DNA from: Sphyrna mokarran
Taxonomy: Eukaryota
Direction of reading: 5' to 3'
Assembly: GCA_024679065.1 (NCBI GenBank)
Contig: JAGIQG010000010.1
Location: 68,634,001-68,698,000, forward strand
Length of the DNA stretch: 64,000 nt
Translations under genes and position numbers: made by a program
Shown: positions 4,553 through 52,431 of the stretch, in pieces
Layout of the letters: each line of letters begins with the position of its first letter
Position numbering within the stretch: position 1 is the stretch's first letter
The notes under the pieces: generated by a model
Databases searched by the model: none
Seen by the model: only the letters and a program-made list of their open reading frames with translations
Told to the model about the DNA's origin: nothing

Positions 4553-5356
4553 CTTGGATTTTGTAAGAAATAAGAAATAATTTCAGCAATTTTAAATACA
4601 GTGTTATCAAGTCTTAATTTCAGAAACTCCTCTTTTTCTCCCCATGTCAACCAATATTGTTATCAGTTATCAATGCTCCTCCTCTCAAAAAGGAAACCCT
4701 TAACCTTCTTGTGGCTTATTCAGAATACATTTAAATTCAGAAAGAAACTTAAAATTGGGGACCAAAAACTAAAATATGAATGAATTAATTAGAATTTGTC
4801 CTTAATTCAGGAATATGCAATTCATTTTTGGAGCAGACACTAAAATAGAGCCAATGACCACATGCTTTTTCATTCACTGTGTTTACAAGTTTTGCTGTCA
4901 TTTATTGACCACCCTTAATTGCTCAAAAAAGTGATGGTGAACCACTGTCATCTGTGTACTGTTAGGACTAGTAATCCCAAAGATTGAACTATGGATTTTG
5001 CGACATCAAGACAGCAGGGAATAAGCCACGAAAATGCAACTCAACTAATGCTTGGCTTGATGCTATAACAAGGTATCCCACCACCCTACCTCGTAATAGT
5101 GCTGTGGACTGCAACGATTCAAGAAGGCAGCTCATCACTTTCTCAAGGGCAACTAAGGATGGGCAATAAATGACAGCAAAACTTGTAAACACAGTGAATG
5201 AAAAAGCATGTGGTCATTGGCTTTATTTTAGTTCTATTATTGGCTCTATTATATTCTAATATATGTGGTCTAATATATTCTAAATATATTCTAATGTATG
5301 TGGTCTAATATATTCTAGAGCCAATGACCACATGCTTTATTATATTCTAAGGATGG

Positions 5357-5602
5357 GGATGCTAGGGGAAAGTTTTTCACTCAGAGGATGGTGAGTGAAT
5401 GGAATCGGCTGCCGTCGGTGGTGGTCGAGGTGAACTCGCTGGGGTCTTTTAAAAGACTTCTGGATGAGTATATGGGATCCAATGGGATTGGGGGTTATAG
5501 ATAGGTCTGTGGCTGGGTAGGTTTTGATGTGTTCGGCACAACTTGTGGGCCGAAGGGCCTGTTTGTGCTGTAGTGTTCTATGTTCTATATGTTCTATGTT
5601 CT
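5357..5602 (+). mobile_element. 5'-truncated CR1 3' end with (TATGTTC)n tail
   Basis: ORF2 terminus (GKFFTQRMVSEWNRLP), conserved gggccgaagggcctgtt hairpin tail and a short tandem-repeat end. Confidence 0.9.
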
Positions 5603-11159: not shown

Positions 11160-11790
11160 TTAAACCTTATCTTGGGTTGCCACCCCTTCTACCCTGGAAA
11201 CAATCACCACTCATTTAATTTATCAAAGTCATTAATGATTTTGAAGACCTCCATCAAATCTCCAATTAACCTTCTCTAATCTAAGGAGAACAATTCCACT
11301 TTTGCAGTTCCTCATTCCAGGCACTATTCTAGTAAATCTCTTTTCCTCTCAGTCAAAGGTCTTTCCTTTGCCTAATGTGTGATGCCTACAAATGAACTCA
11401 GTAGTCCAGCTGAGGCCGAATTAGTACTTTACAAAGTTTGGCATTATTTCCTTGCTTTTAGTACTCTATGTAACTTTTAAGTAAATCAAGGATCCCATCG
11501 ATTTATATTTATTACAGTCTTCACAACTTATCCTGCCACCTTCAAAAGGTTTGTGTACTCATCCCAGGTCTCTGCACATTCTTTGAAATTTTGCCATTCA
11601 GTACAAATTGCCTTTCCTCATTCTTTCTACTGAAATGTATCACTCGACACTTTTCTGCTTTAAATGTCATCAGTCATCTGTCTGCTTATTTCACTAACTG
11701 TACATCCTATTGAAGTCTTACTGTCCTCCTCAATATTTACTATATTTGAGTTTTTTTGTCATATACAAACATTGACATGCTGCACTTTAC
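11160..11790 (-). mobile_element. Degraded CR1 fragment
   Basis: Reverse complement of the CR1 ORF2 C-terminal region (compare the plus-strand copy at ~15100-15400). Confidence 0.6.
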
Positions 11791-11995: not shown

Positions 11996-13064
11996 CAAGG
12001 GAGTGCAGCTTTAGACAATTAACATAGAAATGGTCCATGGACTCCACAAGACAGCAAAAAGGATGCACAGAAAGGAAACACTGTCTGACCAACAGCCTTT
12101 TCAAAAATCTATTTATTAATTGCTCAAAGTTTATTTACACAAGATATTGTTTGTAGGTTCTGCTATTAATGCCTTAATTGATTGACTTTGGTAGGTTCGT
12201 AGTCACAACAGCTTCTACAAAGTGATGAATGAAAGGCAGTTTTTTTAAAAACATTGTTACTATAGAGTTCAAAACTAGAAAATGCTGGAAAATCTTAGCA
12301 GTAAGGAAGGAAGGAAGGGACATCTGTACTCAAAAGCTTGGCTCTATTCTCTCTCCATAAATGCTGTCAGACTTGCTGAGATTTTTCAGCATTTTCTGTT
12401 TTTGTTTCAGACTCCAGCATCCATAGTATTTTGCTTTTGTCTTACTAGTAGGTAAATTAGTTCTGTTCCGAGTGCATATTGGGTGAATGAGCATGAAGGT
12501 GCTATGAGTTGATACGGAGAGCAAGGGGGCCATTGGCTATGGGTGGAGGAAGCATCACACATTAGGAAAAGGAAAGACCTTTGACTGAGAGGAAAAGAGA
12601 TTTACTAGAATAGTACCAAGAATGAGGAACTGGAAAAGTGGAATTGTTCTCCATAGAGTAGAGAAGGAGGATACAATGGGACATTGGGGATGGGGGATAT
12701 GGATTGTATTGGAGGATATGAGGGGGCATTGTGGGTGTTTGGTAGCCCAAGTTGGCATGGATGAGGTTGGGGAATAGGTGGGGATGTGAAGGGTAAGGAC
12801 TAGAGGACCTGATTTTGAATATAATAACTGGGACAATGTCCCAGAGAACTTTTAAACATATCATCGCATTACTCAGCAGCCCCCATGGCTGGCTTTGAAC
12901 TGTTCCCACAAGCGTGGCCATGATTCCAGCAAACCCATGCCCCCGTCACCACTGAGCAAAAAAAAAATCACACCTTTCCAGCCTCTCTTTTTGAGGCAAG
13001 TGCATGAAACCAGCAAATTTGTAGACTCCTGCTACCAGTCATCAAGAGGAAAATCCAGCTCATG

Positions 13065-15672
13065 AAATTGTGGCTACAACAGAGAAAAGGAGGGCAGGAC
13101 TGGATATTAAATATTCCCCAGATACAAGGTGTTCAGGAAAGCTTGAAAAGAAAGGAAAAGAACAGGAGTAGCAGTGATGATGCACCAGAGTGGCCAAGAA
13201 CAAAATTGACTTAGCTAAAGCTAAAGATCAAAAAAGGTACAATTCTATTGGTCAGTGTAATCTATAGGCCACTGACTAGAGTGAAAACTGTAGGGGAACA
13301 AATCTGCAAGGAAATTACAGAGAAGCATAAGAATTATAAAGTAGTTATAATTGTGGATAATTATATACTTCAAACAGAGATTAGGATAATATTAGTGTAA
13401 AGGACAATGAGGGACAAGAATTCATAGGTATGTTCAGGAGAATTTTCTACAGCTGTATGCTTCCAGTCCAATATGAAAGGAATCTATTTGACCCAATTTT
13501 TGGAATAAGGTGCAAAATGGATCACAGTCATAAAGTAGAGATGCCAGTATTGGACTGGGTTGGGCATTGTAAGAAGTCTCACAACACCACGTTGAAGTCT
13601 AACAGGTTTATTTGGAATCATGAGTTTTCAGAACGCTGCTCCTTCATCAGGTGAGGCACTCCAAAAGCTCGTGATTCCAAATAAGCCTGTTGGACTTCAA
13701 CCTGGTGTTGTGAGACTTCTTAAAGCAAATCAAGTGGCAGTAGAAGAATATTTAGGAGACAATGTCATTATATCACGTATTTTAGGCTGACTATAGAAAA
13801 GGACAAGGAATAGTCCAGAGTAAGAATAATTAACTGGGGGAAAGCCAACTTCAAATGGGGTAAGAATGAATCTAAACCAGATAAGTTGGATTCAAAGATT
13901 AGCAGGCTAAACTACAACTGAAAGGTAGGATGCTTTTAAAGAGGAAGTTCAAGTATAATCAACGTATATTCCCACAAAGCAGAAAGGTAAGGCAAACAAA
14001 TCCAGAGCAATTTGGATGACAAATGAGATTGAGAGTAGGAAGGGTGTGCTTATGTCAATTGGATAATTGAGAACCAGGCCAAATATAGAAGGTTCAGAGG
14101 AGAATTGAGAAAGCAAATAAGAGAAGCAAAGAGAATGAGAAGAGACTGGCAGCTGACATTAAAGGAAATCCAAAAGTCTCCTATAGGCAAATAAATAGTG
14201 CAAGGATAGCAAGAAAAATGGGGCTACCTAGGGACCAAAAAGGGCATGAAGACAAAGGATATAGCTGAGGTATTAAATTAATACTTTGAGAACCTGTCTT
14301 TACCAAGGAATATGCTATCCAGGTCATGGTGAGAGAGGAGTAGTTCAAAAACTTGAAGGATTTAAAATTAATAAGGAGGTGGTATTGAATAGGTTGCCTA
14401 TACTTAAAAGTTGATAATTCCAGCAACTACAGACCAGTTTAACATCAGTGGTGGGAAAACTTTTAGAAACAACAATTCAGAACAAAGTTAATAGTCATTT
14501 GAGGGAAACATAGATTAATTAAGAGAGCAAGCACAGATTTGTTAACGGAAAATCATGTTTAACTAACTTGCTGGAGCTTTTCGATGAGATAGTGGGGAGA
14601 CTTGATGAGGTTAATGCTGCTGATGTACATCAACCTCCAAAGACATTTAGTAAAGTGCAACATAACAGACTAGTAGGCAAAGGTAAACTTAATGAAATAA
14701 AAGGGGAGAGGAGCATCATGCATATAATATTGACTAAATGGCAGGAAATAAGAGTGATGGTGAATAGTTGATTTTCAGATTAGAGGAAGGATTATAGTAG
14801 AGCTTCGCAAAGATAGTATTAGAACCTCTGATCTTTCTGGAATATATTAATTACTTAGATCTTGATGTGCAAGGCATCATTTTGAAATTTACAGTTAATA
14901 GGAAATGTGGAAGTACTGTAAACTATAGAATTTCAAGAAGACAGACAGGTCTGTGGAATGGAGGGGCAGCAATACAAGTGCCAGATAAAATTTAATGCAA
15001 AGTAGTGTAAAATGATTTATTTAGGTAGGAGGAATATGGAGATACAAAGGGAACAACTCAAAGGGTATATACGTACATAAATCATTGAAGGTGACAGGAC
15101 AAATTGAGAAAATAGCCAATAAAATATGCTATTCTGAGCTATATCAACTGGGGCAAAAAGTACAAAAGCAAAGGAATCATGTTAAATCTGTATAAAACAC
15201 TGGTTTGGCCTTAATTGGAGTATTGTGCCCAGTTCTGGGATTAGAAGAAGGTCAGAGGGTGCAGAAAAGATTCACAAAAATGATTCCAGGGATGAGGAAC
15301 TTCACCGTTTTCCTTGAGAAGAGATTCGATTGATGCATTTAAAATCATGAGTCTGGACAGAGTAGATAGGCTGAATCTGTTCTCATTGTGGAAGGTCAAT
15401 TTGAGTCATTGGTAAAAACAGTAATGCTGACATGAGAAAAATCTTTCAATGATTAAGTTGTTAGAATCTGAAATGCATTGCGAGTGACATGGTGGCAGGC
15501 CGAATCCAGGGATTCAAAGGGGAGTTGGATCAACATCTGAGAAGGAAAATAGTGCATTATTATGGGAAAAAGCTATACATGTAACAGTAGGTGGACTGCT
15601 CCTTTAGAGGGCAAGTACAGTCACAACAGGCCAAATGGCCTCCCTTTGTGCTGTAACTATTCTATGATTGTA
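13065..15672 (+). mobile_element. Long degraded CR1 ORF2 (endonuclease to 3' tail)
   Basis: Decayed motifs in the correct order: W.LNIP.YKVFRK, NYRPV.LTSVVGK, GKSCLTNLLELF, LEYCAQFW, 3' tail ending ctattctatgatt. Many stops and indels. Confidence 0.85.
13530..13722. mobile_element. Palindromic Penelope-like-derived insert nested in CR1
   Basis: ~59-bp inverted arms 13570-13628 and 13663-13722 with about 5 mismatches. Hammerhead-like core in the loop. Confidence 0.8.
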
Positions 15673-22459: not shown

Positions 22460-25400
22460 TTATAATGCAGATTCCTTTACAGTTCCATTGCCATCCAAAA
22501 AATACTCGTCATCAGTAGTGGTGTCTGAATTTGTATCTGAGTAACAAGGGAAATTCTGTTTGTCAATCTCAGCTGGTGCATGGTGTAGCTGTGGCGAAAG
22601 ACTGTCCTCTGATATTTTACTCCCTGTGGATGAAGAACTTAGAAGTCTCATTATATCAGAAGGATTTTCCTTGGGCCAGAATATTTTAATGTCTACAGGA
22701 AAATATTCATCATTCTGTCCCACATCATCATTCACTCCTGGATCCTGATTTACTTTAGTGATGTGTGGATTAAAAACATCCTCACTTCTTGGAGATGAGG
22801 CTTTGTTGTGCAGATATCCAGGTTTCCACAATTTGTCCTCGACTAATACTCTTTTCAGGTTCTTAAGGTGTGTTTCTTTCTTTTTCTCTTCTTTGGAAAT
22901 ATTTCCAATCAAAAATTCACTAAATTTACTGCTATGGTATGACGTCCAATTGTTATAGTCAGGCTCATTCTCATTAGAGAAAGGCAAATCAAAATATGAT
23001 TGAGAAAGTGTACGAGATTTTATACAATTGGAAACCTGGAGACTGTGGCGAGATTGCCTGTTGCAAACAGTTCGTTTAGGATTATGCAAGCTGCTGGTGG
23101 AAAATATGTTTTCATGATCTTGGAAGGGGGATTGGTTATAATCTGAATTAATGTCTTTCAAACTTTTTGCGTTATACATTCCATCACACATATGTGAAAC
23201 ATTCTGTGGACTGGACCTTGGAGAATGTGTAAACCTGCAGTGTTTTTTCAAAAATCTGGATGTCCCTGTACGTAAGTTATTGTTGACTGTATCATCTTCA
23301 TTAATACTAGAGGAACTTGCTCTGAGTTGATAAAAATCATTGTAGGCATTTAATCTATTGCGAAAATTATTAAGCTCTCTGATATCTGAATCAATTTGAT
23401 CTTCATTTGGGGAGTTTTGCTGCGGCAAGGTAGAAATATTTGCATTTTTCATTCCCTTTGTCCGGTTCTGAAATGTTTCTCCACAGAATACTTTCTTTCT
23501 GCATCTGAATATTTTGCCATTTCTTTCTGCATTGTCAAAGTCTTGTGCAGGGAAGTCAACATGATTTGGTGAATGATCACATGTTATATTCCTGTTGTTA
23601 CATATAACATCAGTGGGAGACAGAAGAGTGGGTGACAAATCAAGTGGTGGAGAAATATCATTGATTAAATCCTTATTAAGATGTTCAGAACTGCCATAGT
23701 ATCTTCTGGCCAAAGTGATATCACCACATTTTGTCGTCTCTCTCAAATACTTACTTTTCTTGCTGCATGTGACACTTAAAAAAGAGTCTTGATCAATCAA
23801 GAGATCCCGTGATGAAACAATATTGTCAGTTTCTGATTTATAGCGCTTCATATTAACATCACATTGTTTATTCAAAGACTGATCACTGGTTGGAAACCAA
23901 TTCTGAAACTTTGTATTTTTGTCCCATGCAATGTTTGTATCAGGCAATAAGAAAGTTCCTCTATTGTTTTTAGATTTACAATTTTCTAGATTCTTGATAA
24001 TTGCTGTGTCCGTTACAAAGTCGCTTCTATTTGGAGAATGAACAGGTGATTTGCCTTGTTTGCTTTTTCTGATATTTACAGGAGACTGTTGTTCAACCAA
24101 AGAAAATTCATTGCTGGTTTCAAGTTTGTACTTCTGTAAACAGCTATTATTTTTTCTGTTCATTATAAATTCCCCACTCAATGTGCAATGAGTTGGTGAT
24201 TTGTCTTGGTTGTTGCGAATGGTTTCAGTGGTGAGCCAATGTCCAGTCATCTTAGATGGTGATGAGGGCGCACTATTAGTTTTATGTAAATCTTTAAAGT
24301 TTAACTTTTTGTAAGGTATTTTATCGTGATAGGTTTCAGTAAAGTGTGATGAATAATTCAGCCTGAGATTTTTCTTGATATCTGTGATAGTGGTTGTGGA
24401 CTGTGCGTCATTTAGTGAACTTAATGCTGGAATTGTGTTAGTTTCTAATGAGTTCACTTTTAAATGTTCATTGACACCAATATCTGCACTGACAGTAGCA
24501 CAGTTCAGTGAACAATTCACTGTCTCACATTTGATGCTGTGTGTCTGAGGAGAACGGTGGCTGGACACTGAACAGAGTGATGGAATTATATGGCTTGTCT
24601 TAAATTTGTCCTGATTATAATCCTGATTAATCACATCAACATCAGTCCTAGCTGGCAAATAACTCAGTAACATGTCCTTATAACCCTGTGTTGTCCTGGT
24701 AGGAGATTTTTGTTGAGTAACTTTATCTCCTGACAACAGTGCACTTTTAGTTTCATGTTTGTAATTTTCTAAATAATCAGGTCTTTCTTGGTGTACATTG
24801 ATGGCCACACTGTTTATCAAATGACGTGGTGACTTGTCTTCATTGCTATGCACAACGTCTGTAAGAGACAACTGGCTGGATACCTGGTTCAATGTTGAAG
24901 GCATAAACTCTGTCTCAAATGTATTCACTGCATCACAAGTATTATTAGCTTCTCTATCCACAGTGAAACCATCAATACTTAGGTATTGATCCTGCAATAT
25001 ATTTTTCCTGCCTTGTGTGATATTTTTACAGGTCCATTGTCTATTCAGTTTATCAAATGAAAGTGCACTGTTTTTGTCGGATTGGCATGTCTCTATAATT
25101 TTGCTACCTACTATCAAACTGATGTCATCTCCGACCAGGGAAAGTGCCTTTGATTTGTCTTCATTGCTGCTTTGAGGGGTATTCTCAGGGAGCCACTGGC
25201 TGGTCACTGCAGTTGATGGTGAGGGTGCACTCTTTGTTTTATGCAAAACATTTAATTTGAATTTGCCGGTTGGTCTCTTACGATGATAGATGTCAGTTAC
25301 CTTTGTTCCACAATGCTGCAGTGTACCTTTTTTCACATTGGTAGCACCCACAGCAAAATGAGGAGGAGTGAATGAATATACTGGTGAAGTGACAAGGCTG

Positions 25401-28400
25401 ATTATAGATTTGTGCTGTTGTAAATTCTCAATTGTTTCTATGTCACCATTGAAAAAGGAACGAGTCAGTGGTTTGTCGAAGTTACTTTGTGAATTAGGAG
25501 GAGGAGAATTTTGATCACTTAATGCACCTGGTGATGGAATTGAACTGCTTTCCCCAGGTTGAACATTTCCAGCATTCTTGCTAACTTCTGCATCCAGACT
25601 GTTGTCGTCACTGAGTGGGAAATGGGTCAATGGTTTGTATGAATTTATAGGAGATGGTTGGTCAGACACTGAATCAGACAGTGTAGGTCCAGTATTGTCC
25701 TTTTGTAATTGTCTATTACTTCCTCTATCTACAGTGACAGTTGGGCTGTTTGGTGAATAATTCAGTGACTGATATTTATTCCTGTGTGGAATCGTTATTG
25801 AAAACTGTTGCCCAATCACTGAATCCATTGCTGATGATATGTAGGCAATCTCTGATTTGTTTTGCTGTATATTATCTTTATTCAATCTTCTTTCCAATGT
25901 GATGTCACCATTTTTTGGGGTCAAATTCTGTTGTATTTCTTTCTCTGTTGGTGTGACATTTGTTGGAGTTCTCTGGTCAGTCCCTCTATCCTGTGAAATT
26001 GTACCACGGTTTCCCAATTGGTAATTTTCTAAATTAATGACACCTCCGGGACTCCTGAATGGAGAATGAGTGGCTGACTCGTTCATGCTGTTAGTTGTGC
26101 TAGTTGTAGGAAGCTGTTGGTCGGTCAACGAACCTGGTGTTGTTGAAAAATCACGGATATCCTTTTGCAAATATTCATCACGTCCCCGGTCCATTGTGGC
26201 ATTTCCACTAAGTGGGGAATGAGACTGTGAATGGCTTTTGTTGTTATGAGAGAGAATTGAAGGAAACCACTCACTGGTGACTGGAGTTAGTGATAAGGAT
26301 GTACTATTTGCTTCATCTGATATTTTAAACAGATCCAAAGACTCCTTGTCAGGAACAATTTCATTTACCTCAGGTTCATTGCAGAATCGTTTATCATTCT
26401 TGATATCTGTGATATTCAAAGTGGACTTTATATTATATAATGAATCTATTGCTGGAATTGTGTTAGTTTCTGATGAGTCCTTTTGTAAATGCTCATTGAC
26501 TCCAATATCTGCAGTAACTGTTGCACAATTTAGTGAACAATTCGATGTTTTACATTTACTGCTGTCTGTGACATTCTTAGAAGGATGGTAGTTGGACATT
26601 GGATCAAGTGCTGGAAGTATGTGATGTGAGCAAAATTCATCCTGATTAATCAAACTGACATCAGTCCTGGCTGATGAATAACTCAGTAGCTTGTCCTTAC
26701 AGCTATGTATTGTATTTGTAAGAGATTTTTGATGAGTAACTTTATCTCCTGACAACAGTGCACTTTTAGTTTCATGTTTGCATTTTTTCAAATAATCAGT
26801 ATTTTCTCGGTATGCATCGACAGCAACACTGTTTACCAAATGACTTAGAGGCTTGTCTTCATTGCTATGCACAATGTTTGTAGGAGACAATTGGCTGGAT
26901 ACCTGATTCAGTGTTGAAGGCATAGACTTGGTCTCAAACGTGTCCACTGCATCACAAGTATCATTAGCTTCTCTGTCCACACTGATGCCATCAACATGTA
27001 GGGAGCAATTCTGTAATATATTTCTCCTGCTTGGTGACATATTTTTATGCCTGTTCAGTTTATCTGTTGATGGAGCTGCACTGCCTTTGTCAGATTGGCA
27101 TGTCTCTATAGTTTTGCTATCTGCTATCAAACTGCCATCTCTGACCGGAGAAAGGGTTTCTGATTTGTCTTCACTGCTGCTTTGCGGGGTACTTTCAGGT
27201 AGCCACTGGCTGGTCACTGCAGTTGATGGTGAGGGTGCACTCTTTGTTTTATGCAAAACATTTAATTTGAATTTGCCGGTTGGTCTCTTACGATGATAAA
27301 TGTCAGTTACCTTTGTTCCACAATGCTGCAGTGTATTTTTTTTCACATTGGTAGCACCCACAGCAAAATGAGGAGCAGTGAACGAATACACTGGTGAAGT
27401 GACAGGGCTGATTATAGATTTGTGTTGTTGTAAATTCTCAATTGCTTCTATGTCACCGCTCTCCAAGGAACGAGTCAGTGGTTTGTCGAAGTTACTCTGT
27501 GAATTAGGAGGAGGAGAGTTTTGATTACTTAGTGCACCTGGTGATGGAATCGAACTGCTTTCCCCAGGTTGAACATTTCCAGTATTCTTGCTAACTTCTG
27601 CACTCAGATTGTTGTCATCATTGAGTGGGAAATGGGTCAATAGTTTGTGTGGATTTGTAGGAGATGATTGGTTAGACAACGAATCAGACAGTATAGGCCC
27701 ACTATTGTCCTTCTGCAAATATTCATTGCTTCCTCTATCCACAGTGACAGCTGGGCTGTTTGGTGAATAATTCAGTGACTGATATTTATTCCTGTGTGGA
27801 ATAGTTGTTGAAAACTGATACCTAATCGCTGAATCTGCTGCTAATGATATATGGACAATCTCCGATTTGTTTTGCTGTATATTCTCTTTATTCAATCTTC
27901 TTTCCAATGCGATGTCACCATTATTTGGGGTCAAATGCCGTTGAGATTCTTCCTCTTCCGTTCTCTGGCCCAGTGAAATTGCACCATGATTTTCCGATTG
28001 GTAAGTTTCCACATTTTTGTTGGAAGATTTCTCATCATGAGCAATTTCAGTTATCTTTGATGGATCAATATACATAGCACTTTTCTTGTTATCAGTGACA
28101 GTGGACTGTAAAGCTGTTAATATTTCTGGTGATGGGTCTATACCATGGTCTTCAGATTTGTCCTTTTGTAAAAAGTGATTGCTTTCTCTCTCTGCATAGA
28201 TATCATTGCTGTGTAAAGGATAAATCAATGATTTGTTCTGGTTGTTAGGTATGATATTTGAAGTCAGCCACAGCGCGATCATCCCAGGTGGTGATGAAAG
28301 TGCTTTAACTGTTTTACCCAAACGCTTGGATTTGTATTGATCACAGGGCCCTTCATCACAACAGATATCAATTACATTTCTTGAATAATGATCAAGTCCA

Positions 28401-31400
28401 TTTTTCCTTATATTGGTGATTGCTGAAGGAGATTCTGGCAGATATTCCATAGCAGTACTTTGCAGTGGATCTGCTGAAAGATCCACACCACTGATTTCTG
28501 AGTTATCTTTCTGCAAATGCTTATTAAATTCAGTATCCGCAATGAAAGTAGAATTGATAAATGAACAATTTAGTGACTCGTCTCTATATATGGGTGTGAT
28601 AATTGTAGTAGATGGATTGCTGATCGCTGGACCTAGGCATGAAGATGGACAAGTAGCTTTAGCTTTGTCCTGCTCTGTTTCTCTTGATATTTCAGCACTG
28701 TTTGGCAAATAATTCAGTTGATCTCTGTTGGATGTGGTATTTATAAGAGACAGTTGATGAGCCCCTTTATTTAAAACAACCGCAGCGTTGCTTTCAGATT
28801 TGCTATTTTTCAAACAACCAAGACTATTCCTGTTCTTTGTCACATCAACACTGCTGAGAGAATGACAGAGTGGTTTGTGTTCATTGCAATGTTTGTTATC
28901 CAAGAGAGACAACTGGTTAAAAGCTGGATCCAGTATAGAAAGAGTATTATCCATCTTAGATTTATCTGTTTTTTTGCCATCTTTAGTAATTCCTCTCAGC
29001 ATAGCAGTGTCAGCACTGTTCCATTCCCAATTTTGAAGTGTATTTTTTGTACCATGTATAATACCTGAAGGTGTCTTCAATTCAGTTGCTGTGGCTGATA
29101 ATGAAATAACTTTGTAGTTTTCAGACTGACCATTTTCTAAATTCTTTGTAACATCTGATCTCACTGGGGAATGATTCAGTAATTTGTCTGTATTATCATG
29201 AGTATTTGTAGAGGACTGCTGGTCACTCATTATGTCTGCTGGTGAAATTGGAATATTTTTTTCAGTTTGGTAATTTTCTGTATTCTTAATGGTTCCTGGA
29301 CTCATGTTGGTATCATCACTGAGTAGGAACTTAATCAATGATTTATCTTGGCTGTCTATGAAATTTGTACGAGGCTCTTGGCCACTCAGTGAATCTTGTA
29401 CTGACAATTTATTGCTGTTGTTAGATTTATCCTTTGGTAAGTGTTCGTTGCCTTCATTAAGGGAAGAATATGTCAATAAAGTATTTTGCTTCAAATGGGA
29501 TGTGACAGGTGCAGATGACAGTTCCTCATTTACTGTTTCAGGTATGTTTTTCTGTGCATCATTGCTGTTTTCAATGATGTAGTTCAATGAGTTACCTTTG
29601 TTGGTGATAGTAAATGAACATTGTGCTACAACTGGTGGTATTGTGGTCTTTTCAAATTTATAACTTTGGACATCATGAACACTATGTATTTCAGGCAAAT
29701 TGCTATCGACAATGTGAGATGGCCAATTCTGTGAAGTATTTTTCGTACTGATACCTGAAGGCAATGTTTCATTTGTGCCTGATAATGATAGAACACAGTT
29801 TAAATCAGATTTATGCTCATTAACTATTGCGTCTGCAGTTATGTCAGTACTCCTGACTGAATCATCCAGTAAAAGGTACTCATAGGTGGAACGTACAGGA
29901 AACGTATAGCTGAGTACTTGGTCTGTTGATAGTGTTATGTCAGCTGTCCGTCTGTAGTTTTGTTCAGAATTTATATTCAAAAGGATATTGTTGGTTGATG
30001 ACAGACTTTGGGAACTAAATGCTTTGTGGTTTGGAGATTGCATTATAACCATTTTTGTTGCATGACTCATTTCTGATTCATCATTTTGTGAAGCAGTACC
30101 TATACTGTCTAAGAAGACATCATCAGTTTTTGATTGATTGCTCAGTAATGCACTATCATGATGAATTATATTTGTTACACATTTTGGATCTGCTGAAAGT
30201 TCATGACTGGTTTCATGTTTAATTTTCTGTGAGCAATCATTACTAATTAGCTCAGTTAGTAATAAAGATGTACTTCTTCCCTCATTTTCACAACTGTGTT
30301 CCCAACTGTTATTTTCACTTTCTGGCATAGGGCCATCTGCATCTCTTAATGTGACAGGTTCCACTCTGGTCTCACTTGATATGAGATTATCTACTGAAGA
30401 TTTTTCTTTCTCTGTGTACATAAACAAAGGGCTGCTTTCTCTTCCATCCCTATTGCTTTGTAAATGATCATTACATGTACTTTGTACAGTAATATTAGTG
30501 TTATCTGACCCAGAATATTGATGCTTAGTTTTGCTGCTGATCGTGATAAATGAAGTTGCCCTTGATTGGCACTCTGGTTCTGACAGGAAAGTGGGACTAA
30601 GGGATCTATAGTTACTGGTTTGCAAAGAATCATTGTTACTGTCTCTTTGGAAAGTGGCATCACCACAATTTTGCAAATCAATAGTCCACCTACTGTGAGT
30701 ATATATGGAAAACAGAGGAGTGTGTGGAATATATATTGAAACATGTGATGATTTTGTTTTGCTATAGTTTAAATAATCAGCTCCATCCATTTTTTGTGAA
30801 GTACTGAGTGAACTATTCGACAAATTCTGTTGTTGCACATCTCTGTTGCCAAGACTAAGACTACTTGGGCCTGAATTTAACGATGAAGATTCACTATCTC
30901 TTTGTGACTGGTCATAAGTATTGTTTGACGACTGGCTTTGCAGACTATTTCTGTTGCTATCAGCAACAACTGGAAGAGATTGTGATTTGGTTAGTAAGTC
31001 CAGTAAAGATGTTCTGATGATTTCATGCTTGCTGATTGACAAACAACTTCCAGTATCTGTTTTCAGAATGTCATTAGTATGGTTTATTGGCTGATTTTGA
31101 AACATATTTTGAGGCTCAGTAATAGAAGTCTGTGAGCCAGATGCTGAATTTGGTAACATTGTATTGTCAGTTTTGTATTGACATATTTCAGTAGAAGTAC
31201 AATCATTTCCTCGAAAAGCATGAATGTTTCTTGACAGATGACTATGTTTCACATTTGCAATGTTGCACTGAATTGGCGCTGACTGTAGTTCAATATTTTC
31301 GCTTAACTCTGAAGAATTCAGCAAAATGTTGGTTTGATTGTCATTTCCATATTGTTTTGTGAGGTGGTTATAATTTTGAACACCTTTTATGGCAGTGTTT

Positions 31401-31455
31401 TGCAACTTGGAATTGCTTGAATCTTCAGTTCCTACGATCTTTTCATGTTCATGCA
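22460..31455 (-). CDS. EXPH5: EXPH5 giant terminal coding exon 6 (8996 nt, Ser/Thr/Asn-rich, internally repetitive)
   Basis: Uninterrupted ORF with acceptor tgtttgcAG at 31457-31456 (phase 1). The C-terminal motifs KLWKPGYL and SDTTTDDEYFLD...KESAL* resemble the conserved EXPH5 C-terminus. Adjacent to POGLUT3 as in tetrapods. Confidence 0.9.
23930..27950 (-). repeat. In-frame tandem duplication with ~2010-nt (670-aa) period inside EXPH5 exon 6
   Basis: Identical anchors: tggtcactgcagttgatggtgagggtgcac at 25201 and 27211, tggtgaataattcagtgactgatatttatt at 25751 and 27761 (offset 2010). The offset is 2019 at 24721/26740. Confidence 0.95.
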
Positions 31456-31549
31456 CTGCAAACACAAACATGATCAAGAAAATTAACAAATAATAAGTTT
31501 CTCTCTGGACTTACTGCACTACATTCTCTCAGGTCAAATCCTACAGTGA

Positions 31550-43240: not shown

Positions 43241-44809
43241 CTAAAAATGAAACCAACCATTATTAATATCACAAAGAAAAAAATTGCACCAGGCATTTAA
43301 GCTAAGTGATCTTTCCAGAAAGGTGAACAATTTTTATCAACCATGTTACCATCATTGTGTTTCAACAATTCTTTATATTTCAGTGGATGTAGGGCATCAG
43401 GGAATAACTCCATTTCACTATTACTAACATTCAGATAGCATCAGAAAACTGATATGTTGATCTTCAAATGACTTTCAGAGCTTCTGTTCCATGTGATAGT
43501 AGACTATATTGAGATAATACTTTGGTGATAGCTATCACAATACCATCAAGTGTGTGCAGGATATTGCTCATATCAGAATATGGACAGATCTTCCAATATC
43601 AGAGGAACACAAATACTCGAAAGCTAATATAAAATTGCACTCAAACTATGACAAGCAATTGCATTTGACTGTTCCAGCACAGTTACAACATATCATACGT
43701 TTATAGTAATATAGAACAGAATATTCATAATGTAAAAGAAAACAATGCCAATGTTCATTGTCATCTCATTGAAAAGACTCCCTATGGCCTATAAACAAAT
43801 TTTTCCTGGACCTCAGTGCAAACAGAAAAATTTTACTGTCCCACCCACTATGTAAATCATAGCAGGCGAGGGAAGGACCATAGAAAGGTCTGTTGACCTC
43901 AGGCAAAACTTTTCCAGTTTTGGAACAAGTGTGGATGGCAAATCCTGCCCTCTCAATGATGAGATGTGCTCTCCCAACAGGACACAGAAACTGCTGGAAA
44001 CAAACAAATTCATGGATGACAATCTAATTTAACTGAACTCCGCCTAACTCTTACCAACTGCAACTATATGAAAAATAGTACAATAACTAGATACAAGTCC
44101 ACCCTACAGTGTGCAATTTATCAATTATATGTATTCCTCCTTATCTGTACTGCCTTCATTAATCTGATTGATTGTCACACAAGCTCTCTCTGATTAGCTG
44201 TGGCACATTTACAGCACTGCAAGATTAATAGGGAGAATATCCATAAGAAAATTCTTCACACCCAGAATTCTAACTTTTGAGTCTTGTGCTATGGCCAGCT
44301 GGGTTGATGTCCTTTTCTCCTTTGTTGCCGTTTTCTTAAATGCAAACATTGCTTTTTACATAGCGCGAATTTCAGTGTGCAAATGTGCAAAAACGACAAT
44401 TCTGCTGCATAAAAGTGCTTATTTGTTAATTTGCCAGTCAACTTTTTATGCTGAACTTGTATTCATAATTTGTTAAATCAAGGAAATCACACATGGAATT
44501 CAGTATTCCAGATATTGTAAGGTTATACAAATAAAAGTCTACTGGACAGAATATAAAATGAAATTTGAACCAAACATGCAAGACAAAAGACTAAAGTGAG
44601 AATGTCCCCACCCGGTCTCATTAGACGAAGGGGAGTGAAAAAGAAAGCAATTTTTCACACGTTTCCTGAATTTAATGGTTTTTGCTACCAAATTCCACCA
44701 TAACAAAGTGTACCTTTTCCAGAAATGACACAAAAGCAAATTAATTAACTTAATGAAGAACAAAATGAGAAAGATTCAAAATTCTTCCTGCCGAGGTAAT
44801 CGAACAGCA

Positions 44810-45110
44810 AGAATGACGTACTTGCAACATGGTGTTTATAACATAGTGAAATGTCCCAAAGTGCTTCACGGGAGCTTTATCAAAACAAATTTGACTCTGA
44901 GTTAGTCGGGGGTGTGGGGTGTGAATATTAGGACAAATTGCCAAGAGATTGGTCACAAGTGGCAGATTTTAAAACGAAAATTGTAACAGTAAAGAGAGTT
45001 AGTGGGGTTTAGGGAGAGAGAATTCTAGGTGTTCTATGCTTGGGAGCTGACAGCACCGACGCCAATTGAAGAATTTAATTGGTGAAATTAAATCCGGTGA
45101 AGTTCAAAGA
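44810..45110 (-). mobile_element. L2-like 3' end
   Basis: gtcccaaagtgcttcacgggagctttatcaaaacaaatttgac, homologous to 17068-17145. Confidence 0.6.
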
Positions 45111-45579
45111 CAATAACATAACATTATACAGTGCTGACAGGTTGTGTTTTGAAAATTATACCTCTTTTATCCCAGTAGCACATGAACTGTAATTTTCCAC
45201 AGAACATTTGAGTTACCATGCCAAGTTTCACGACTTCAGAAGGGCTGTGTTCCCACAGTTCACACTGCCTATATAAGATAAACTCAGTTTATCTCAGTTT
45301 ATATATCTATACAAGATAAATTCAAGGCAGATAAATGCTTTTTTGAATCATTTCAGTCCGTTTTTGCTCTTACGATAGCTCTGTAATGGCCCTAGTCAAA
45401 GTCACAAATGACATCCTTTGCGCCTGTGACCATGGTAAGTTGTGTTTGGGATTTCCTGGCTCACTTGCCCCAAATTCAACCCAAGATCGACGGACCTTTG
45501 CAAGATCCATAGTATCCCGCCCAGTACAGTGAGCTGGAGGAAAAATTCCGCTTAATGCATTTGGTGCTTTTCTGAATGA

Positions 45580-45750
45580 ATCTTCTCCATTTTGGTCAGT
45601 CACAAATCAGGAGCTCCCAATAGGCAGCATGGATATGTGACTCTTCAAGGATACTCGTAAAGTATTTTCATTGTCCTCCTGGGTGTCATCTGCTGCAACT
45701 AAGTGCAAAATAGAGCAATTATTGCAGGGTTCTGGTATTAGGCATACAAC
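45580..45750 (-). mobile_element. RTE-like LINE fragment
   Basis: Minus-strand MPNTRTLQ*LLYFAL...HPGGQ*KYF resembles the RTE ORF C-terminal motif MPDxRLPKQLLYxEL...PGGQRKRF. Confidence 0.5.
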
Positions 45751-46365
45751 AACAACAACAACTCTCAACTCCATAAACTTTCCACCTGTCCTCCTTTGAG
45801 ATGTTCTTTGACTGACTATTGGTTACCTGCCTTAATAGCTGCTCCTGATAAATGCGCTATATTAATGCAAGTTGTTTTTAAAGTAGCTTTGTCCCATTAG
45901 TTATGTGGGGAAAAACCTTAGACTCAAGAAAACTTCATATATGCTACATTTGCTGTGTTTAATATTCAAGGACCTCAGTCAGCCACCTCACTGAGCTATC
46001 ACATTGGAGTCAATGATGAATTTCATTGTCTATCTTTATTGAGAAAAAGTTTCCACGATTTGAAAAACAGCTACATGTGATGGAGAAGGTTCATTGAAAG
46101 ACACTGAACACATTGGAAATGTGTTAAGTTAAGGTGTCAGAAGGATCACATAAACCTCAACCAACTCGTTGACCAATTCCTTCAGGCACTATCTGCCCCA
46201 TACGTAACATAGTCTGCAAAACATCCATTGGATGTTTACAAGACTCCATCTTGTATGTGTCAACAGACTTAACCGAGACAGTGGCTGAGCTGTCAACTGT
46301 TGTGGACAGATGTCTGGGAAGGTTCTTTACCTCCCTGTGAAGGTTATATAACATTATCTTATGCA

Positions 46366-48222
46366 ATAGGATCCATCTCTTCCTTGGACACAGGTGAGGT
46401 CCCAGAGGACTGGAGGATAGCAAATGTAGTATCGTTGTTTAAAAAAGGTCAGAGGGATAACCCAGGGAACTATAGGCCGGTGAGCTTGACTTCAGTTATA
46501 GGTAAGCTAATGGAGAGGATTCTCAGGGACAGGATGTATGAGCATCTGGAGTGCTGCGATCTGATCAGGGATACGCAGCATGGCTTTGTCAAGGGGAAGT
46601 CTTGTCTTACAAATCTAGTGGAATTTTTTGAAGAAGTGACAAAAACAGTTGAAGGACATGCTGTTGATGTCATCTACATGGATTTCAGTAAGGCGTTTGA
46701 CAAGGTTCCTCATGGTAGACTGATAGAGAAGGTGGAGGCGCATGGGATACAGGGCCGGGTATGTAGATGGGTCGAGAACTGGCTCGGGAGGAGGAGACAG
46801 AGGGTAGTAGTGGAAGTAGTTTTTCCGACTGGAAGCCTGTCACTAGTGGAGTGCTACAAGGCTCAGTACTAGGTCCTCTTCTATTTGTGGTCTACATAAA
46901 TGACTTGGAAGTAGGGGTAGGTGGTGAGATCAGCAAATTTGCTGATGACACTAAGATGCTTGGATTGGCAGGTACAGAGGAGCAGTGCCAGGCAATACAA
47001 CAGGACATAGATAGGTTGGTATACTGGGCAGATAGATGGCAAATGGAATTTAATCCGGATAAATGCGAGGTGATGCATTTTGGCCGGAAAAATGTAGGAG
47101 AGTTATAGGATAAAAGGTAAAACTATTCGGACTATAGAGACGCAGAGAAACTTGAGGGTGCAGGTTCACAAGTCTCTGAAGGTGTCTTCACAGGTGGAGA
47201 AGGTGATAAAGAAGGCGTATAGTATGTTAGCTTTCATTGAAAAGGGTATAGAATACAAGAGTAGGAGTTTGATGTTGCAATTGTATAGAACGTTGGTTAG
47301 GCCTCATTTGGAATACTGCGTCCAGTTCTGGTTGCCGTACTATCGGAAGGATGTGGAGTCCTTGGAGAGAGTGCAGAGGAGGTTTACCAGGATGCTGCCT
47401 GGTATGGAAGGACTGTCTTATGAGGAACGATTAGATAGACTGGGGTTGTTTTCCCTTGAAAGATGTCGGCTTAGAGGGGATCTCATAGAGGTGTATAAGA
47501 TTATAAGGGGTATAGGTAGAGTAAATGGAGGTAAACTTTTTCCACCTTTAGAAATGGATAGGACGAGGGGTCATGGCCATAGGGTGAGGGGGGCTATGTA
47601 TAGGACGAATATTAGAGGGCAGTTTTTTCACACAAAGGGTAGTGGGGGTGTGGAATGCACTGCCGAGTAAGGTGGTGGGAGCAGGCATGCTGGGGCTGTT
47701 TAAGGGTCTCTTGGACAGCCACATGAGCGGTATGCAGATAGAGGGATATAGTAGGACTGTTTAACTACGGCTTTTTTTCCACAGGTAATTCAGTCCATAC
47801 TTGACCAACATTGAGCATGCATTTGGCAGGTGGTGCGGGTACAGCTCTTGGATGTTGGATTGCCTGGTACCTCATGTCGTAAATGAGTGCTTTATGTGGA
47901 CCATCTGAAGGGCACCATGACAGCTCAGAGACTATCGATGTGGCTGTGCAGACACTTGGAATTGGGCCGGTGTCTGTGGGAGTTTGCGCGTTCTCCCCGT
48001 GGTTGCGTGGGTTTTCTCCGGGCGCTCCGGTTTCCTCCGACATCCCAAAAATTCGCTCTTAGGCTGATTGGGAAACAAATTGTCCCTACGTTTAGACTCT
48101 TCTATATTAGGAATAACCTAAAATTAGAATAGGATAATGGAATTGTTACTATATAGTTATGACGGCGGCACGGGCTCGTTGGGCCGAAGGGCCTGTTTCC
48201 CGTGCTGTGTTGCTCTAAATCT
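46366..48222 (+). mobile_element. Young 5'-truncated CR1 LINE (RT domain nearly intact) with extended 3' UTR containing a V-SINE body
   Basis: ORFs 46300-46872, 46767-47108 and 47152-47670 give contiguous RT motifs (YMDFSKAFDKVPH, GVLQGSVLGPLLF, KFADDTK, RPHLEYCVQFW) with few lesions, followed by a ~460-nt 3' UTR and CR1 tail. Confidence 0.95.
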
Positions 48223-49964
48223 GGATCACCTGAATGTATACCATACAAATAAACTAATCTGTCCATTTCAAACAAAAGATTAAAGCCATGCTTACATCAT
48301 GGAATCAACCATTTTGTTTCTTTAGCAGTTGATTATCTACTTTGGAAAAGGATGATGCCAATTGTCCATGTGTATTCAATTTACAAGGAAATACCTTTTA
48401 AAATGTAATTTCAATGGACAAACAGGAATACTTTACAAAAAGTAGAATTAGTTTCTGTTGGTCTTGAACAGAAACTTCAAGGAGCATCATTTTAAATTTA
48501 AACTATTCTATTCCCCTAGCAGGGGTATGCAGTAGCAGCTGGTTTGCCTTTCTCAATGCCAGGTCCCTCAATGAGGCAAAGTACCTTTGAATGAAAGAAG
48601 CCCCCTCACTCTCTGGGAAGCCCCTGGGAATGCGCAAACAAACATACCAGGGTTTACTTGTTGTGCTTTCTGCATGCTGAGCCCCTTGCCCACTATTGGG
48701 TTAACAACAGCAATGGCAGGATGAGTTCATGCGGGCACTAATTGCCCATTTCAGTACCTCAATTGGTAGCTGGGCAGGAAAGCTGTCAACAGGTCATAGT
48801 ACTCTGGACTTAACTGGGGTGAAGGCAAGAAGGTGGTGTCTCACCTGTTTGAAGTGCTCTCACTCCTGTGTCTTCTCACCATAGGAGAGGGCACAAGATT
48901 CTGTCCATTATTTGCAGATTATGTTGTTAAAAACTAGTAGAGTATTTTGTACTTATCAGTCAATATCAAACTTACAAGCACAGGACTCTGCACACCCTCA
49001 AGACAAACACTAAGTAAAGATCAACAATTTAAAAAAAAAATCAAGACTCTCACTTGAAACATTCACTGAATCCTTACACTACACACATGATAGCACTTCC
49101 ACCAGCAGCTTGGCATCAGCATCAATATCATAAGATCAGTGGACAGCACTACAGTCTCCTCAGAATAAAATGGTATAAATCTGGGAGGTAGGAGCCCTGA
49201 AGTATAAATAATGCTTTCAACTGTGCAAGCTATCATTTTCTGACCCCCTATATAAGCAATGCCGCTACCCAATAATTGGCCTGTGTGAATGTTCCTTACC
49301 ATTGAGGACTGAAGGTCAGAAATGAATTAAAAAGGCACTACTGACAAACTGGGCACTGGAAGCCTGGGTATTTTTGTCATATGTTCTAAAAACAACTCTA
49401 TAATCAAAATACATCACAAAAACAATTCTAACAAAGCTCATAATTAAAGACACATTTGTTTTAAAACAAAAGGAAGGAAAAAGAGAAAAAAAATCAGAAA
49501 AGGAACGACTCCACCGTCACCAACAACGGCAGGCTACAATAACTCATGTTTCAAATCATGAAGCCAAGCAAATAACATCCTCATTTGGAAGCACTAACGA
49601 TGATAACAACTGCACATCCTATGCATTGTATTGGCCGTAAACCTTGAGATGATCTAGAAAAGCACGTGTCTAAATGCAAATTTTTTTTCTCCTGGAAGTG
49701 ACATTGGATGCATAATATCTGTCCATACAAGGGGAGGCACACTATAACAAGATCATGGCACGTTATGTATGTGCAATCTAACAACTATGGACAGAGTTCT
49801 GAGCCACTAAACTGCTCAGAATGAACCTCAACAAAAACCACCGCCTTTTCTGAAGTATCAAGACAAGTTCTGTAGAAAGATGATCTAGATCCAAAATGTT
49901 AACTCCATTTCTCAAAGATATATCTTCAGACCTGCTGAGGGTTTATGCATCATTTTTTCTTTTT

Positions 49965-50345
49965 ATATAAAGAGATGGCTGGACTGGAGGCAAGAAGGGC
50001 CCTCAGATCCTTTTGGAGTCTCACTCTCTCAGCATGTTGCCCTTGAAGAGGCTGCAATGGGGAAGAGACTGTTACCCACCTCTTTCCGGAAAATGTCTTT
50101 ACAGAGAAGGTCTGGAAACTGATGCAGTGGTATGTCAAAGGTCATCTTACACAGCTCCATGGCACAGGTCCGTCTGTGCCAAGGGCTGTTCACGTACCGT
50201 ACAGCTCGAGAATCATCAATTTGGCGAAAGACATTCTTTGTTGAATGTGACTGAGCAGTGCAAACCGGCACATTTTGAGATCCAGAACTATGTGTTGAGG
50301 GATATAAGTTTGAGGCAGTCAATGCAAAGGCATCTTAGGCTTTTC
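49965..50345 (+). mobile_element. L1/Tx1-like ORF2 C-terminal fragment
   Basis: RGCNGEETVTHLF...EKVWKLMQWY, a zinc-binding-like motif. Confidence 0.6.
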
Positions 50346-50897
50346 AGTGATTATGAAAGGAGGGAGATGGTGACATAGTGGTATTGTCATAAAGTAGTAA
50401 TCAGAGGTCCAGGGCAAGATCTGGAGACTTGGGTCTCCAGAGCTACAGGAATGTGATTGACTCCTAAATGGAAGGTAGTTATGGATGTTGGCCCAGCCTA
50501 TAACACTCATATGCCAGAAACATTTTTTTTATTAAATGCTGGAAAATGGGTGAATCTCCTTAGGCTAGGTGTAATGATTATTGTAAGTTGTAAATGAATA
50601 ACATAGTTTTGAAAGAAACATAGTTGGTTTGTTTCCATAATGCCAACTTTGAAAGGTCTTCTAGATATCATATGAAGAAAATATACTTTTGGAAAGAAAA
50701 TCCCTGATATCCATCGTTACGGACTGCCAGGGAGCAGAAATTCCACCCCCCTCTCCCTGATACATAGAAGTAATTGACTTTTTAGCAATTTACCATAGTA
50801 ATATCGCTATGAAACAGAACTTAATATGGGGAAGGTATGGTTGGCACAAATCTGCAACCTGTTATTCACCCGTCCAGAATATTATCTAGCTGATATA

Positions 50898-51516
50898 CTG
50901 GAGGCAGGCACTCTGGAGTTATTTAAGAAATACTTAGCTAGGCACATGAACAGAATGGGAATGGAGGAGTATAGAAAACTGATTTAAAATAAGGATCATG
51001 AGCCTTAGGAGTTCCTGGGAAGTGTGTAAATAGATGATGATATTGATGTATTTGTTTTTATCCTACAGGTGCTTTGGTCCACCTTGTTGTCTAACAAGGG
51101 GCATACACGCGATGGGTCGTGAGAGGACTGCTCTTGGATTTTTTTTCCAGAGTATCCTAGTGCTTCACGTTGTTAGTGTATGCTTGACCTGGACCATTTG
51201 ATGGGCAACACGGCAGCTCAGTGACTATAGCTGTGCTGTGCAGATACATGGATTTGGGCCTGCGGGAGTTTGCGCATTCTCTCCATGCTTGTGTGGGTTT
51301 TCTCCAGGTGCTCCAGTTTCCTCCCACATCCCAAAGATGTGCTCCTAGGCTAATTGGCAAAACAAATTCTCCCTAAATTGTCTCAAATTTGGTTTTTAAT
51401 CCATAGATCTATAAACATGGACAGGGATAGCGGGTAGAGGTGGGAACATCGAGGTGGCGGCGCGGGCACATTGGGCCGAAGGACCTGTTTCCTGTGCTGT
51501 TTTGTTCTTTGTTCTT
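50898..51516 (+). mobile_element. 5'-truncated CR1 3' end with the same hairpin + V-SINE cassette; 7-bp target-site duplication
   Basis: ORF2 end (EAGTLELFKKYLARHMNRMGMEEYR), cassette, tail (TTGTTCT)n. TGATATA at 50891-50897 and 51517-51523. Confidence 0.85.
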
Positions 51517-52294
51517 TGATATATTGGGTAAGCGTATGTTTCCCCAATTCAAATGTTGATCCACATAACTGATTTTTGTTTTGAGTTGCAGGGTCCGCAT
51601 TCTGGAAACAGTGGAATTAGTGACATTGTTTCGTTGATTTTATGGCGCACGGATGAGGAGATGAAACACTGGAGGAGTTGGTCAGGGAGCGGAGAGAATT
51701 GAAAGCACCCAGTAGCTGTCATTCACGGAGACTTGCCTTGCGTAGGCATACTCATCGGAAAGTATCTCCTAACCCATATTTCACTCCGGTGGAAATTGGT
51801 CAGAGTGGTGACACTCTCAATGTTAGTACTTGCTTTTTGTTTGTATTCGTATCACTTTTTTTTACAATAATGATAGTTTGCCAAATCCTCAAGATTAAAC
51901 ATTTCCTTTATCATCATTTTGCTCTGTAACAATTCCACCACGTTAACTTTCATGGGTTAAGGGTAACTCCATACTTTCGGCGCTTGTGTTTTGTGCCCTT
52001 ACCCTTTCCAGTTTGTTAAATTTTGTTTCTGTTCGTTTCTGACATCAAAATGGATAAAATCACTCGATTTCGAAATAAGAGACTGAGAATATTAAAATCG
52101 GGTAATAAATGTATCTCTGCATTGTTACAGTATTTCTAGCGTGCTTTAAAAAAGTAACCAGTTTGCTTCACAATCAAAAGCATTTTTGAGACAATCCCTG
52201 GCTCCACGTTTCAACAAGGGTCAGATACTGTGTCAGTATCAGCTCTCCGGAGCAACTCACAAGTAATTGAACACAGGCTAGTTTAGTTACATAC

Positions 52295-52431
52295 CTCAAC
52301 CTCTCGTTGTTCATCCTCTGAACCGCCTTATCCCGCTCCAGCACCTCCAGGATCGCATTCACTTCCTCCTTGCTGAGGAAACTCAGATCCACCGAGTGCT
52401 TTGATTTGGGCGTCCTTAAACGGTAAGACAT
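52295..52431 (-). CDS. EXPH5: EXPH5 coding exon 1 (Slp homology domain SHD1, Rab27 binding)
   Basis: MSYRLRTPKSKHSVDLSFLSKEEVNAILEVLERDKAVQRMNNERLR fits the SHD1 pattern DLSFLxxEExxxILxVLxR. Donor AG|GTATGT, 137 nt, phase 2. Confidence 0.9.

Follow-up and report, generated by a model that had tools for sequence, protein, structure and literature searches.

A cassette of splice-site-like signal, predicted hairpin and B-box-less SINE domain in the 3' UTR of two shark CR1 retroelements

The 3' UTRs of CR1 LINEs are usually viewed as a short tail that serves for recognition by the reverse transcriptase. In shark genomes CR1 is the most abundant repeat group, accounting for 22-34% of elasmobranch genomes (PMC13343379), and HE1 and HER1 are described as a SINE/LINE pair of sharks (PMC3747384). 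V-SINEs, such as HE1 of sharks and rays, begin with a tRNA-like head, behind which lies a central domain that is conserved. This V domain is also known from inside another element, the MER6 MITE (PMC6887750), and the reason for the conservation of SINE central domains is stated to be unknown (PMC4824008). Retroelement RNAs are also among the substrates of the Microprocessor (Drosha/DGCR8), which are described as having a stem of ~35 bp and a loop of >10 nt and which include non-miRNA Drosha substrates without the sequence motifs (PMC10954719): L1 and Alu RNAs are reported to be cut by the Microprocessor, as a form of host restriction (PMC4203495), and miRNA precursors derived from SINEs are described in the elephant shark (PMC5499810).

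Here we describe two 5'-truncated CR1 copies in a 64-kb stretch of Sphyrna mokarran DNA (this whole stretch is called the window below) that carry, behind the ORF2 stop and ahead of the CR1 tail, a cassette of ~320 nt. In both copies the cassette consists, in this order, of a T-tract with CAG|G, a hairpin module, a tRNA-like head and a central SINE domain, and the two cassettes are 74% identical over 328 alignment columns. Their features are as follows.

Copy 1, 46375-47764 (+): 5'-truncated CR1 ORF2, from the reverse-transcriptase domain to the C-terminus, stop at 47762-47764 (RVT_1, relatives, frames)
Copy 1, 47760-47785 (+): 3'-splice-site-like signal with a branch-like pentamer overlapping the stop, T-tract (11/14 pyrimidines) and CAG|G, AG at 47783-47784
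Copy 1, 47782-47907 (+): whole hairpin module, including the invariant GUCCA/UGGAC boxes (initial annotation, folds)
Copy 1, 47813-47892 (+): predicted core hairpin; the pairs common to both copies join 47814-47835 to 47868-47891 (z -2.05 for the + strand, 0.0 for the - strand)
Copy 1, 47910-48088 (+): SINE part, a tRNA-like head with a ~19-nt B-box deletion, then the central (V-type) domain, with which it breaks off (SINE alignment, box scan, blastn)
Copy 1, 48161-48222 (+): CR1 3' tail stem-loop (z -2.91; aligns with the CR1 tail at 5546)
Copy 2, 50891-50901 (+): candidate 5' target-site duplication, 11 bp with 1 mismatch (repeat match)
Copy 2, 50902-50987 (+): last ~28 codons of CR1 ORF2, stop at 50985-50987 (frame, likeness to copy 1)
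Copy 2, 51043-51069 (+): 3'-splice-site-like signal, AG at 51067-51068, 79 nt past the stop (12/14 pyrimidines)
Copy 2, 51066-51200 (+): whole hairpin module (initial annotation, folds)
Copy 2, 51100-51184 (+): predicted core hairpin with a 35-nt 5' arm and a 14-nt apex, shared pairs 51100-51121 with 51161-51184 (z -4.79)
Copy 2, 51203-51377 (+): SINE part with the same B-box deletion (alignment)
Copy 2, 51456-51516 (+): CR1 3' tail, fold as in copy 1 but z -0.62
Copy 2, 51517-51527 (+): candidate 3' target-site duplication, pairing with 50891-50901

The carrier resembles the shark CR1 LINEs of HER1 type in its reverse-transcriptase domain and the C-terminus of its ORF2, in being truncated at the 5' end and in having a tail stem-loop with a stem that varies from copy to copy. 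ORF2 of copy 1 matches RVT_1 (E 1.5e-18) and has 3678 relatives among 4178 candidates; the 120 relatives listed are 42% to 69% identical to it, the figure of 69% belonging to a zebra-shark record. It contains three frameshifts and no in-frame stop in the four resulting segments (461 codons), and from these intact codons its decay since insertion would be under ~5%. Only the end of ORF2 is left in copy 2, where 12 of 30 residues are identical to copy 1, and in both copies ORF1, the endonuclease and the 5' UTR were lost by truncation. The ORF2 end, cassette and tail of copy 2 are together flanked by the candidate target-site duplication, which 67 of 3000 random window pairs match equally well; around copy 1 we found no convincing duplication.

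The tail stem is a known type of reverse-transcriptase recognition hairpin. It takes one fold with differing stem letters in three CR1 tails of the window (GCACGGG/CCCGUGC at 48161-48211, GCGCGGG/CCUGUGC at 51456-51501 and GCACAA/UUGUGC at 5535-5575), with z scores of -2.9, -0.6 and -2.1. As a separate observation, 69 loci in bacterial genome records encode a CR1/L2-type ORF2 with identities of 25-72%, and these are likely to be animal DNA in the assemblies; a single Metamycoplasmataceae MAG accounts for 39 of the loci, and one locus (L052:454-484) also matches the SINE domain over 31 nt.

The ORF2 stop is separated from the cassette by 7 nt in copy 1 and ~67 nt in copy 2, of unrelated sequence, and homology between the copies starts sharply at the T-tract. 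On its other side the cassette is separated from the tail by a spacer of ~70 nt that cannot be aligned between the copies (z 0.0). Identity varies along the element, being 69% in the ORF2 end (63% in a MAFFT alignment), 12/13 in the tract, 65% in the hairpin core, 84% in the SINE head, 84% in the SINE domain and 80% in the CR1 tail. Because copy 1 is young (0 stops over 461 codons) and yet has no spacer that can be aligned with that of copy 2, most of this divergence would have arisen between master lineages. The cassette evidently moves together with the LINE, because the whole unit of copy 2 lies inside the candidate duplication and because both copies share a derived deletion. The composite retroelement is real, and its anatomy, the homology of the copies, the loss of the B box and the co-insertion are shown.

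Two other CR1 3' ends of the window (~5350-5600 and ~14960-15660) differ in that they run from ORF2 to the tail in less than ~100 nt, without a cassette. The cassette hairpin is also distinct from the CR1 tail stem-loop, lying ~270 nt upstream of the tail. Searches of the 64-kb window with blastn and nhmmer gave no further cassette copy, and the four ordinary SINEs of the window have no hairpin upstream. A pattern search of the genome contig collection gave 0 matches, the hairpin was present in 0 of the 69 bacterial-record ORF2 loci, plasmids and phages gave no match to the cassette, and conceptual translations of the hairpin, compared with protein sets, yielded nothing or four weak repetitive matches that were set aside. 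The searched window contains no tRNA gene. The literature that we searched, in the parts accessible to us, gave no description of the cassette; repeat databases or the CR1 consensus 3' ends of PMC13343379 may hold one.

The head and domain of the SINE part align with the four ordinary SINEs of the window. A deletion of ~19 nt common to both cassettes removes the B box that these SINEs possess, and the best B-box match has 4 mismatches in both cassettes as against 1-3 in the ordinary SINEs. In both copies the SINE part stands at the same place behind the CR1 stop, ends after the domain and is followed by a LINE-type tail instead of its own, so that neither a Pol III B box nor insertion with a tail of its own, as expected of an independent SINE, was found. 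We take the part to be of the V-SINE/HE1 type, a putative label based on the domain and on PMC3747384 and PMC4824008. It differs from the V-SINEs and from MER6 in that its carrier is an autonomous-type LINE, its B box is deleted, its own tail is missing and the tail present is of LINE type. Among the changes in the SINE part that could be polarised, 2 were A>G or C>T and 9 were G>A or T>C, small numbers in either case, which gives no sign of a mutation bias towards A>G or C>T such as would weaken the G-U excess in the hairpin described below.

Upstream of the hairpin, both copies carry a signal resembling a 3' splice site. By a crude score built on a general consensus, equally good AG sites number 17 of 8214 in the window for copy 1 and 4 of 8214 for copy 2; the two sites are homologous and count as one observation. 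An 8/9 donor candidate lies inside ORF2 of copy 1, at 46394. At the 5' ends of shark CR1 elements, G|GTRAGT donors occur in 9 of the 21 consensus sequences displayed in the supplement of PMC13343379, counted by eye, and the CR1-group 5' ends of the table in that source contain 127 donor 7-mers in sense and 90 in antisense, against 19 for two permutations. The two acceptor-like sites (47785 and 51069) themselves read AG|GT, with donor matches of 8/9 in copy 1 and 7/9 in copy 2; this may be the form of a recursive splice site, or merely the usual acceptor consensus. We considered that the hairpin might mask the acceptor and rejected this, as the probability of the site being unpaired is 0.10-0.13, which ranks 21-27 among 35 such sites. 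Because both copies run through acceptor and hairpin, the RNAs that were inserted had evidently escaped splicing at the former and cleavage within the latter.

The hairpin module had been described in the initial annotation as conserved in structure but not in sequence. Every stem that it listed, and the shared decamer, are indeed present at the coordinates given. It did not name the acceptor-like site and the promoter-damaged SINE that border the module on its 5' and 3' sides and mark it as part of an inserted cassette. The copies are nonetheless homologous, with 84 of 126 aligned bases identical (67%), and blastn aligns the hairpin alone between them at E 4e-7, so the second half of the description does not stand, and the first half holds for a shared core and in a relative sense. 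The outer stems are close to invariant (4/5 pairs of CAGGU/AUYUG and 5/5 of GUCCA/UGGAC) and show no covariation. CAGGU is improbable as a stem in both copies (pair probability 0.06-0.09), and GUCCA is improbable in copy 1 (0.03-0.05) and probable in copy 2 (0.65-0.83). Two of the inner stems are out of register, GGGUAC/GUACCU of copy 1 having a probability of 0.00 and CGUGA/UCACG of copy 2 one of 0.07-0.08, and the decamer, placed near the apex, forms pairs in copy 2 but extends into the loop in copy 1. The structures drawn by eye have energies of -16.6 and -31.4 kcal/mol in copies 1 and 2, against minimum free energies (MFE) of -39.0 and -52.5.

The expectation that the modules fold better than shuffled sequences was borne out by copy 2 (z -4.96, 0/200; z -4.4, 1/500) and failed for copy 1 at full length (z -1.13, 25/200; z -1.0, 83/500). 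Among 160 background windows, ~21% fold as well as copy 1 and 2 as well as copy 2. The alifold energy of the two copies is not significant (p 0.15-0.22), and counting pairs on the two-row alignment placed 12-25 of 500 controls, which are weak ones, at the level of the MFE structure of copy 2 and 110 of 500 at that of the structure drawn by eye. The 5' loop of copy 2 contains an extra 7-bp hairpin, CCUUGUU/AACAAGG (51082-51099), which is partly kept in copy 1.

What the two copies do share is an inner stem. When each copy was folded independently, 15 pairs with p>0.5 fell in the same alignment columns; 7 of them are unchanged, 6 are changed on one side and 2 on both, and all still pair. Trimmed to this core, with boundaries that were set post hoc, copy 1 gives z -2.05 (8/200) and -2.92 (0/200) on the + strand, its - strand having z 0.0. 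In copy 2 the - strand is stably folded too (z -4.35 and -4.68), and the core register was taken from the + strand folds. In full context the pairs of the lower helix have probabilities of 0.8-1.0, bar one mismatch in copy 1. Permuting the substitutions among like bases reached the shared-pair score in 4/1000 and 13/1000 cases. With the MFE structure of copy 2 as reference, copy 1 can still form 14 of the 22 changed pairs, where the null expects 40% (p 0.004); with that of copy 1 the retention of 30/42 is not significant (p 0.43).

The permutation null takes no account of a hairpin ancestor, and we therefore simulated neutral decay over 29 core positions, where 46 of 58 cells are observed to be paired, double changes number 2, and Watson-Crick pairs have become G-U in 8 cases and A-C in 0. 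With mutation unbiased, this total pairing has p 0.015 if the ancestor was imperfect and p 0.19 if it was a perfect repeat, whose decay matches it at p 0.19-0.60 across the simulations. That the ancestor was imperfect is suggested by the mismatches shared by both copies (G-A, U-U and a 2-nt bulge). The double changes are not significant (p 0.14-0.19, and 0.16-0.19 without bias), and the excess of G-U over A-C has p 0.0045 without bias and 0.035-0.13 at a 2-3-fold strand bias; folding without G-U pairs was uninformative on this comparison. The hairpin diverges faster than the adjoining SINE part (42/126 vs 29/176 differences, Fisher p 0.0009) and about as fast as the ORF2 end. It can be aligned between the copies, unlike the spacer before the tail, and its apex is not conserved. 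Structure is thus kept more than sequence in a relative sense. We consider it probable that the core stem, itself a predicted fold, is under selection as a sense-strand RNA structure. The selection on RNA structure proposed at the outset in this way finds moderate support on the sense strand, in a stem different from those that were stressed. All conclusions on the hairpin come from two copies only.

What such a stem might do is a more tentative matter. Our best guess is a Microprocessor-type (Drosha/DGCR8) substrate that would be cut like a microRNA precursor; we lean towards it, still at less than even confidence, because the stem measures ~35 bp, even though the motifs are mostly absent. 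In the predicted folds the core has a 33-nt 5' arm and an 8-nt loop in copy 1 and a 35-nt arm and a 14-nt apex in copy 2, which agrees with the size of a pri-miRNA (~35-bp stem, apical loop, unpaired base). The small-RNA precursor suggested by the initial annotation is in this respect supported by geometry, but most of the sequence motifs do not fit it. Relative to the expected motif positions, a basal UG and a mismatched GHG are roughly in place in copy 1 and absent from copy 2, CNNC is out of position in both copies (+10/+21 and +22 from the stem base), and neither copy has an apical UGU in place. The putative 5p and 3p seeds differ between the copies, the would-be mature arms being the most variable part, and counts of seed sites in the window were uninformative. 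A canonical miRNA gene was rejected, as the seeds are unconserved and the hairpin matches no Rfam family; it could act as Drosha substrates other than miRNAs do, or be a precursor that is young and changes fast. A likeness of copy 2 to miR-133 and to miR-302/430-type seeds was dropped because copy 1 does not have it and Rfam gave no match.

Compared with described Microprocessor substrates, including miRNAs that overlap splice sites (PMC10954719, PMC8465124, PMC4203495), the core is similar in the size of its stem and apex and has a 3' splice-site-like signal ~30 nt upstream; it differs in having no conserved mature sequence and few motifs, and in that it does not itself overlap the splice site. 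The described cutting of L1 and Alu is a restriction by the host (PMC4203495), not a module kept by the element as we propose for the cassette. The precursors of the elephant shark offer a likeness in that SINEs of cartilaginous fish are tied to miRNA hairpins, but there, as far as PMC5499810 describes them, it is the head or domain of the SINE that serves as the precursor, whereas the cassette hairpin precedes the head and has no relation to it.

The cassette would have entered CR1 by template switching, which has been discussed for SINE/LINE chimeras (PMC4824008, PMC5499810), or by insertion into the 3' UTR of a master copy. Lacking a B box, the SINE part would be readable only through the LINE's own transcription. 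If the Microprocessor reading holds, the hairpin would be a site of cleavage for part of the LINE RNA, which may or may not first have been spliced to the acceptor from a donor further upstream; less full-length RNA would remain, and a 55-65-nt precursor with arms open to drift would be set free. Against cleavage it must be said that cutting its own RNA is costly to the element and that a benefit has to be assumed. An extended form of this reading, which we regard as improbable, is that a shark CR1 lineage makes two RNAs, much as a retrovirus does: a genomic one that is left unspliced and a short one that is spliced. The short RNA, in which a 5' UTR donor is joined to the cassette acceptor and both ORFs are removed, would serve as a microRNA precursor encoded by the LINE, its arms changing fast; retrotransposition would have spread it through the genome, along with a V domain whose action does not depend on Pol III.

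The observed pairing could also be left over from an old inverted repeat, a fold-back or MITE remnant captured with a piece of SINE and now decaying neutrally, the acceptor-like tract being incidental. This is a serious rival, if on the unlikely side: a perfect repeat could have decayed to the 46 of 58 paired cells, the full-length module of copy 1 does not stand out from shuffles, copy 2 folds on the - strand as well, and the hairpin diverges at about the pace of the ORF2 end. It accords less well with the 8 G-U against 0 A-C and with the imperfect ancestor indicated by the shared mismatches, which brings total pairing without bias down to p 0.015. Neutral decay must also contend with a hairpin that remains alignable where the spacer is not, and with the lack of matching terminal repeats with a TA duplication around it. 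We consider it unlikely, again, that the hairpin is a protein-binding scaffold for unspliced LINE RNA, acting in export, stability or RNP assembly beside the acceptor like a retroviral transport element and without cleavage. That role would be of direct benefit to the element, it suits inserted copies that derive from unspliced, uncut RNA, and the internal mismatches, GUCCA/UGGAC boxes and decamer are common to both copies in sequence; but other CR1 3' ends of the window manage without a hairpin and the acceptor is not specially masked. The RNP or export element named in the initial annotation also found no counterpart in Rfam, whose scan of the window gave 0 matches at gathering score and 3 weak ones at E<=10, all outside the elements. 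A CTE-type export element was rejected on this ground and because the NXF1-binding loop hexamer is absent.

Editing by ADAR, which had likewise been suggested, would account for both fast divergence and G-U content, and the long imperfect duplex and the core differences (11 A/G vs 6 C/T) are in its favour. Yet the ORF2 end is equally skewed (17 vs 6), the whole hairpin is balanced (13 vs 12) and the core register contains no A-C mismatch, which makes an ADAR substrate very improbable. The chance seems slighter still that we are looking at a self-cleaving ribozyme, or at an antisense retrocopy of a small RNA whose poly(A) remnant is the T-tract, even if homology does begin sharply at that tract and a promoter-less SINE could form its 5' end by a ribozyme. 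Both copies extend upstream into ORF2, the - strand of copy 1 forms no stable fold, and Rfam gave no match on either strand. CUGANGA is likewise absent from both strands, and the copies have no L3 or J4/2 motif of HDV type in a common position. A hammerhead or HDV-like ribozyme was accordingly rejected, its catalytic motifs and fold being absent, as was an H/ACA or C/D snoRNA, for which the copies share neither an H box behind the hairpin on the + strand nor a C box and Rfam gave no match.

If true, a kept cassette in which an acceptor and a structured RNA are joined to a SINE domain without promoter would give CR1 a further level of regulation; if the hairpin is a neutral relic, the cassette is a mere curiosity of repeat annotation. 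The SINE part also bears on the question of why SINE domains are conserved. Its head and domain are 84% identical where the ORF2 ends are 63-69% identical, and its B box is gone, from which it would follow either that the SINE domain acts outside Pol III transcription or that the cassette moved between CR1 lineages.

Both CR1 copies are antisense to a host gene and lie within its first intron.

43246-52294 (-): intron 1 of a shark Rab-binding-domain gene (tblastn exons on either side)

The flanking exons found by tblastn are at 52425-52201 (exon end ~52295; ~52295-52431) and 43245-43081 on the - strand. The gene, which is presumably 'exophilin-5-like', gave no match when its product was searched against Pfam. 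Its long exon at 22460-31510 (-) has 13 relatives among 1497 candidates, 13/13 of them from sharks or rays; the best is from Mustelus asterias (88% identity), and one is named as a RabBD-domain protein. This giant exon is a single open frame of 3016 codons and holds an internal duplication of 1.58 kb (24372-25946 vs 26397-27956, 84% identical). Elsewhere in the window, the background scan showed two very stable folds, at 5201-5335 (z -8.2) and 13601-13735 (z -7.7), with 25 shuffles each, the former overlapping tandem repeats and an inverted pair (4839-4936/5133-5232). Another inverted pair, 11270-11385 and 12552-12667, has arms 1.2 kb apart that are 94% identical over 116 bases.
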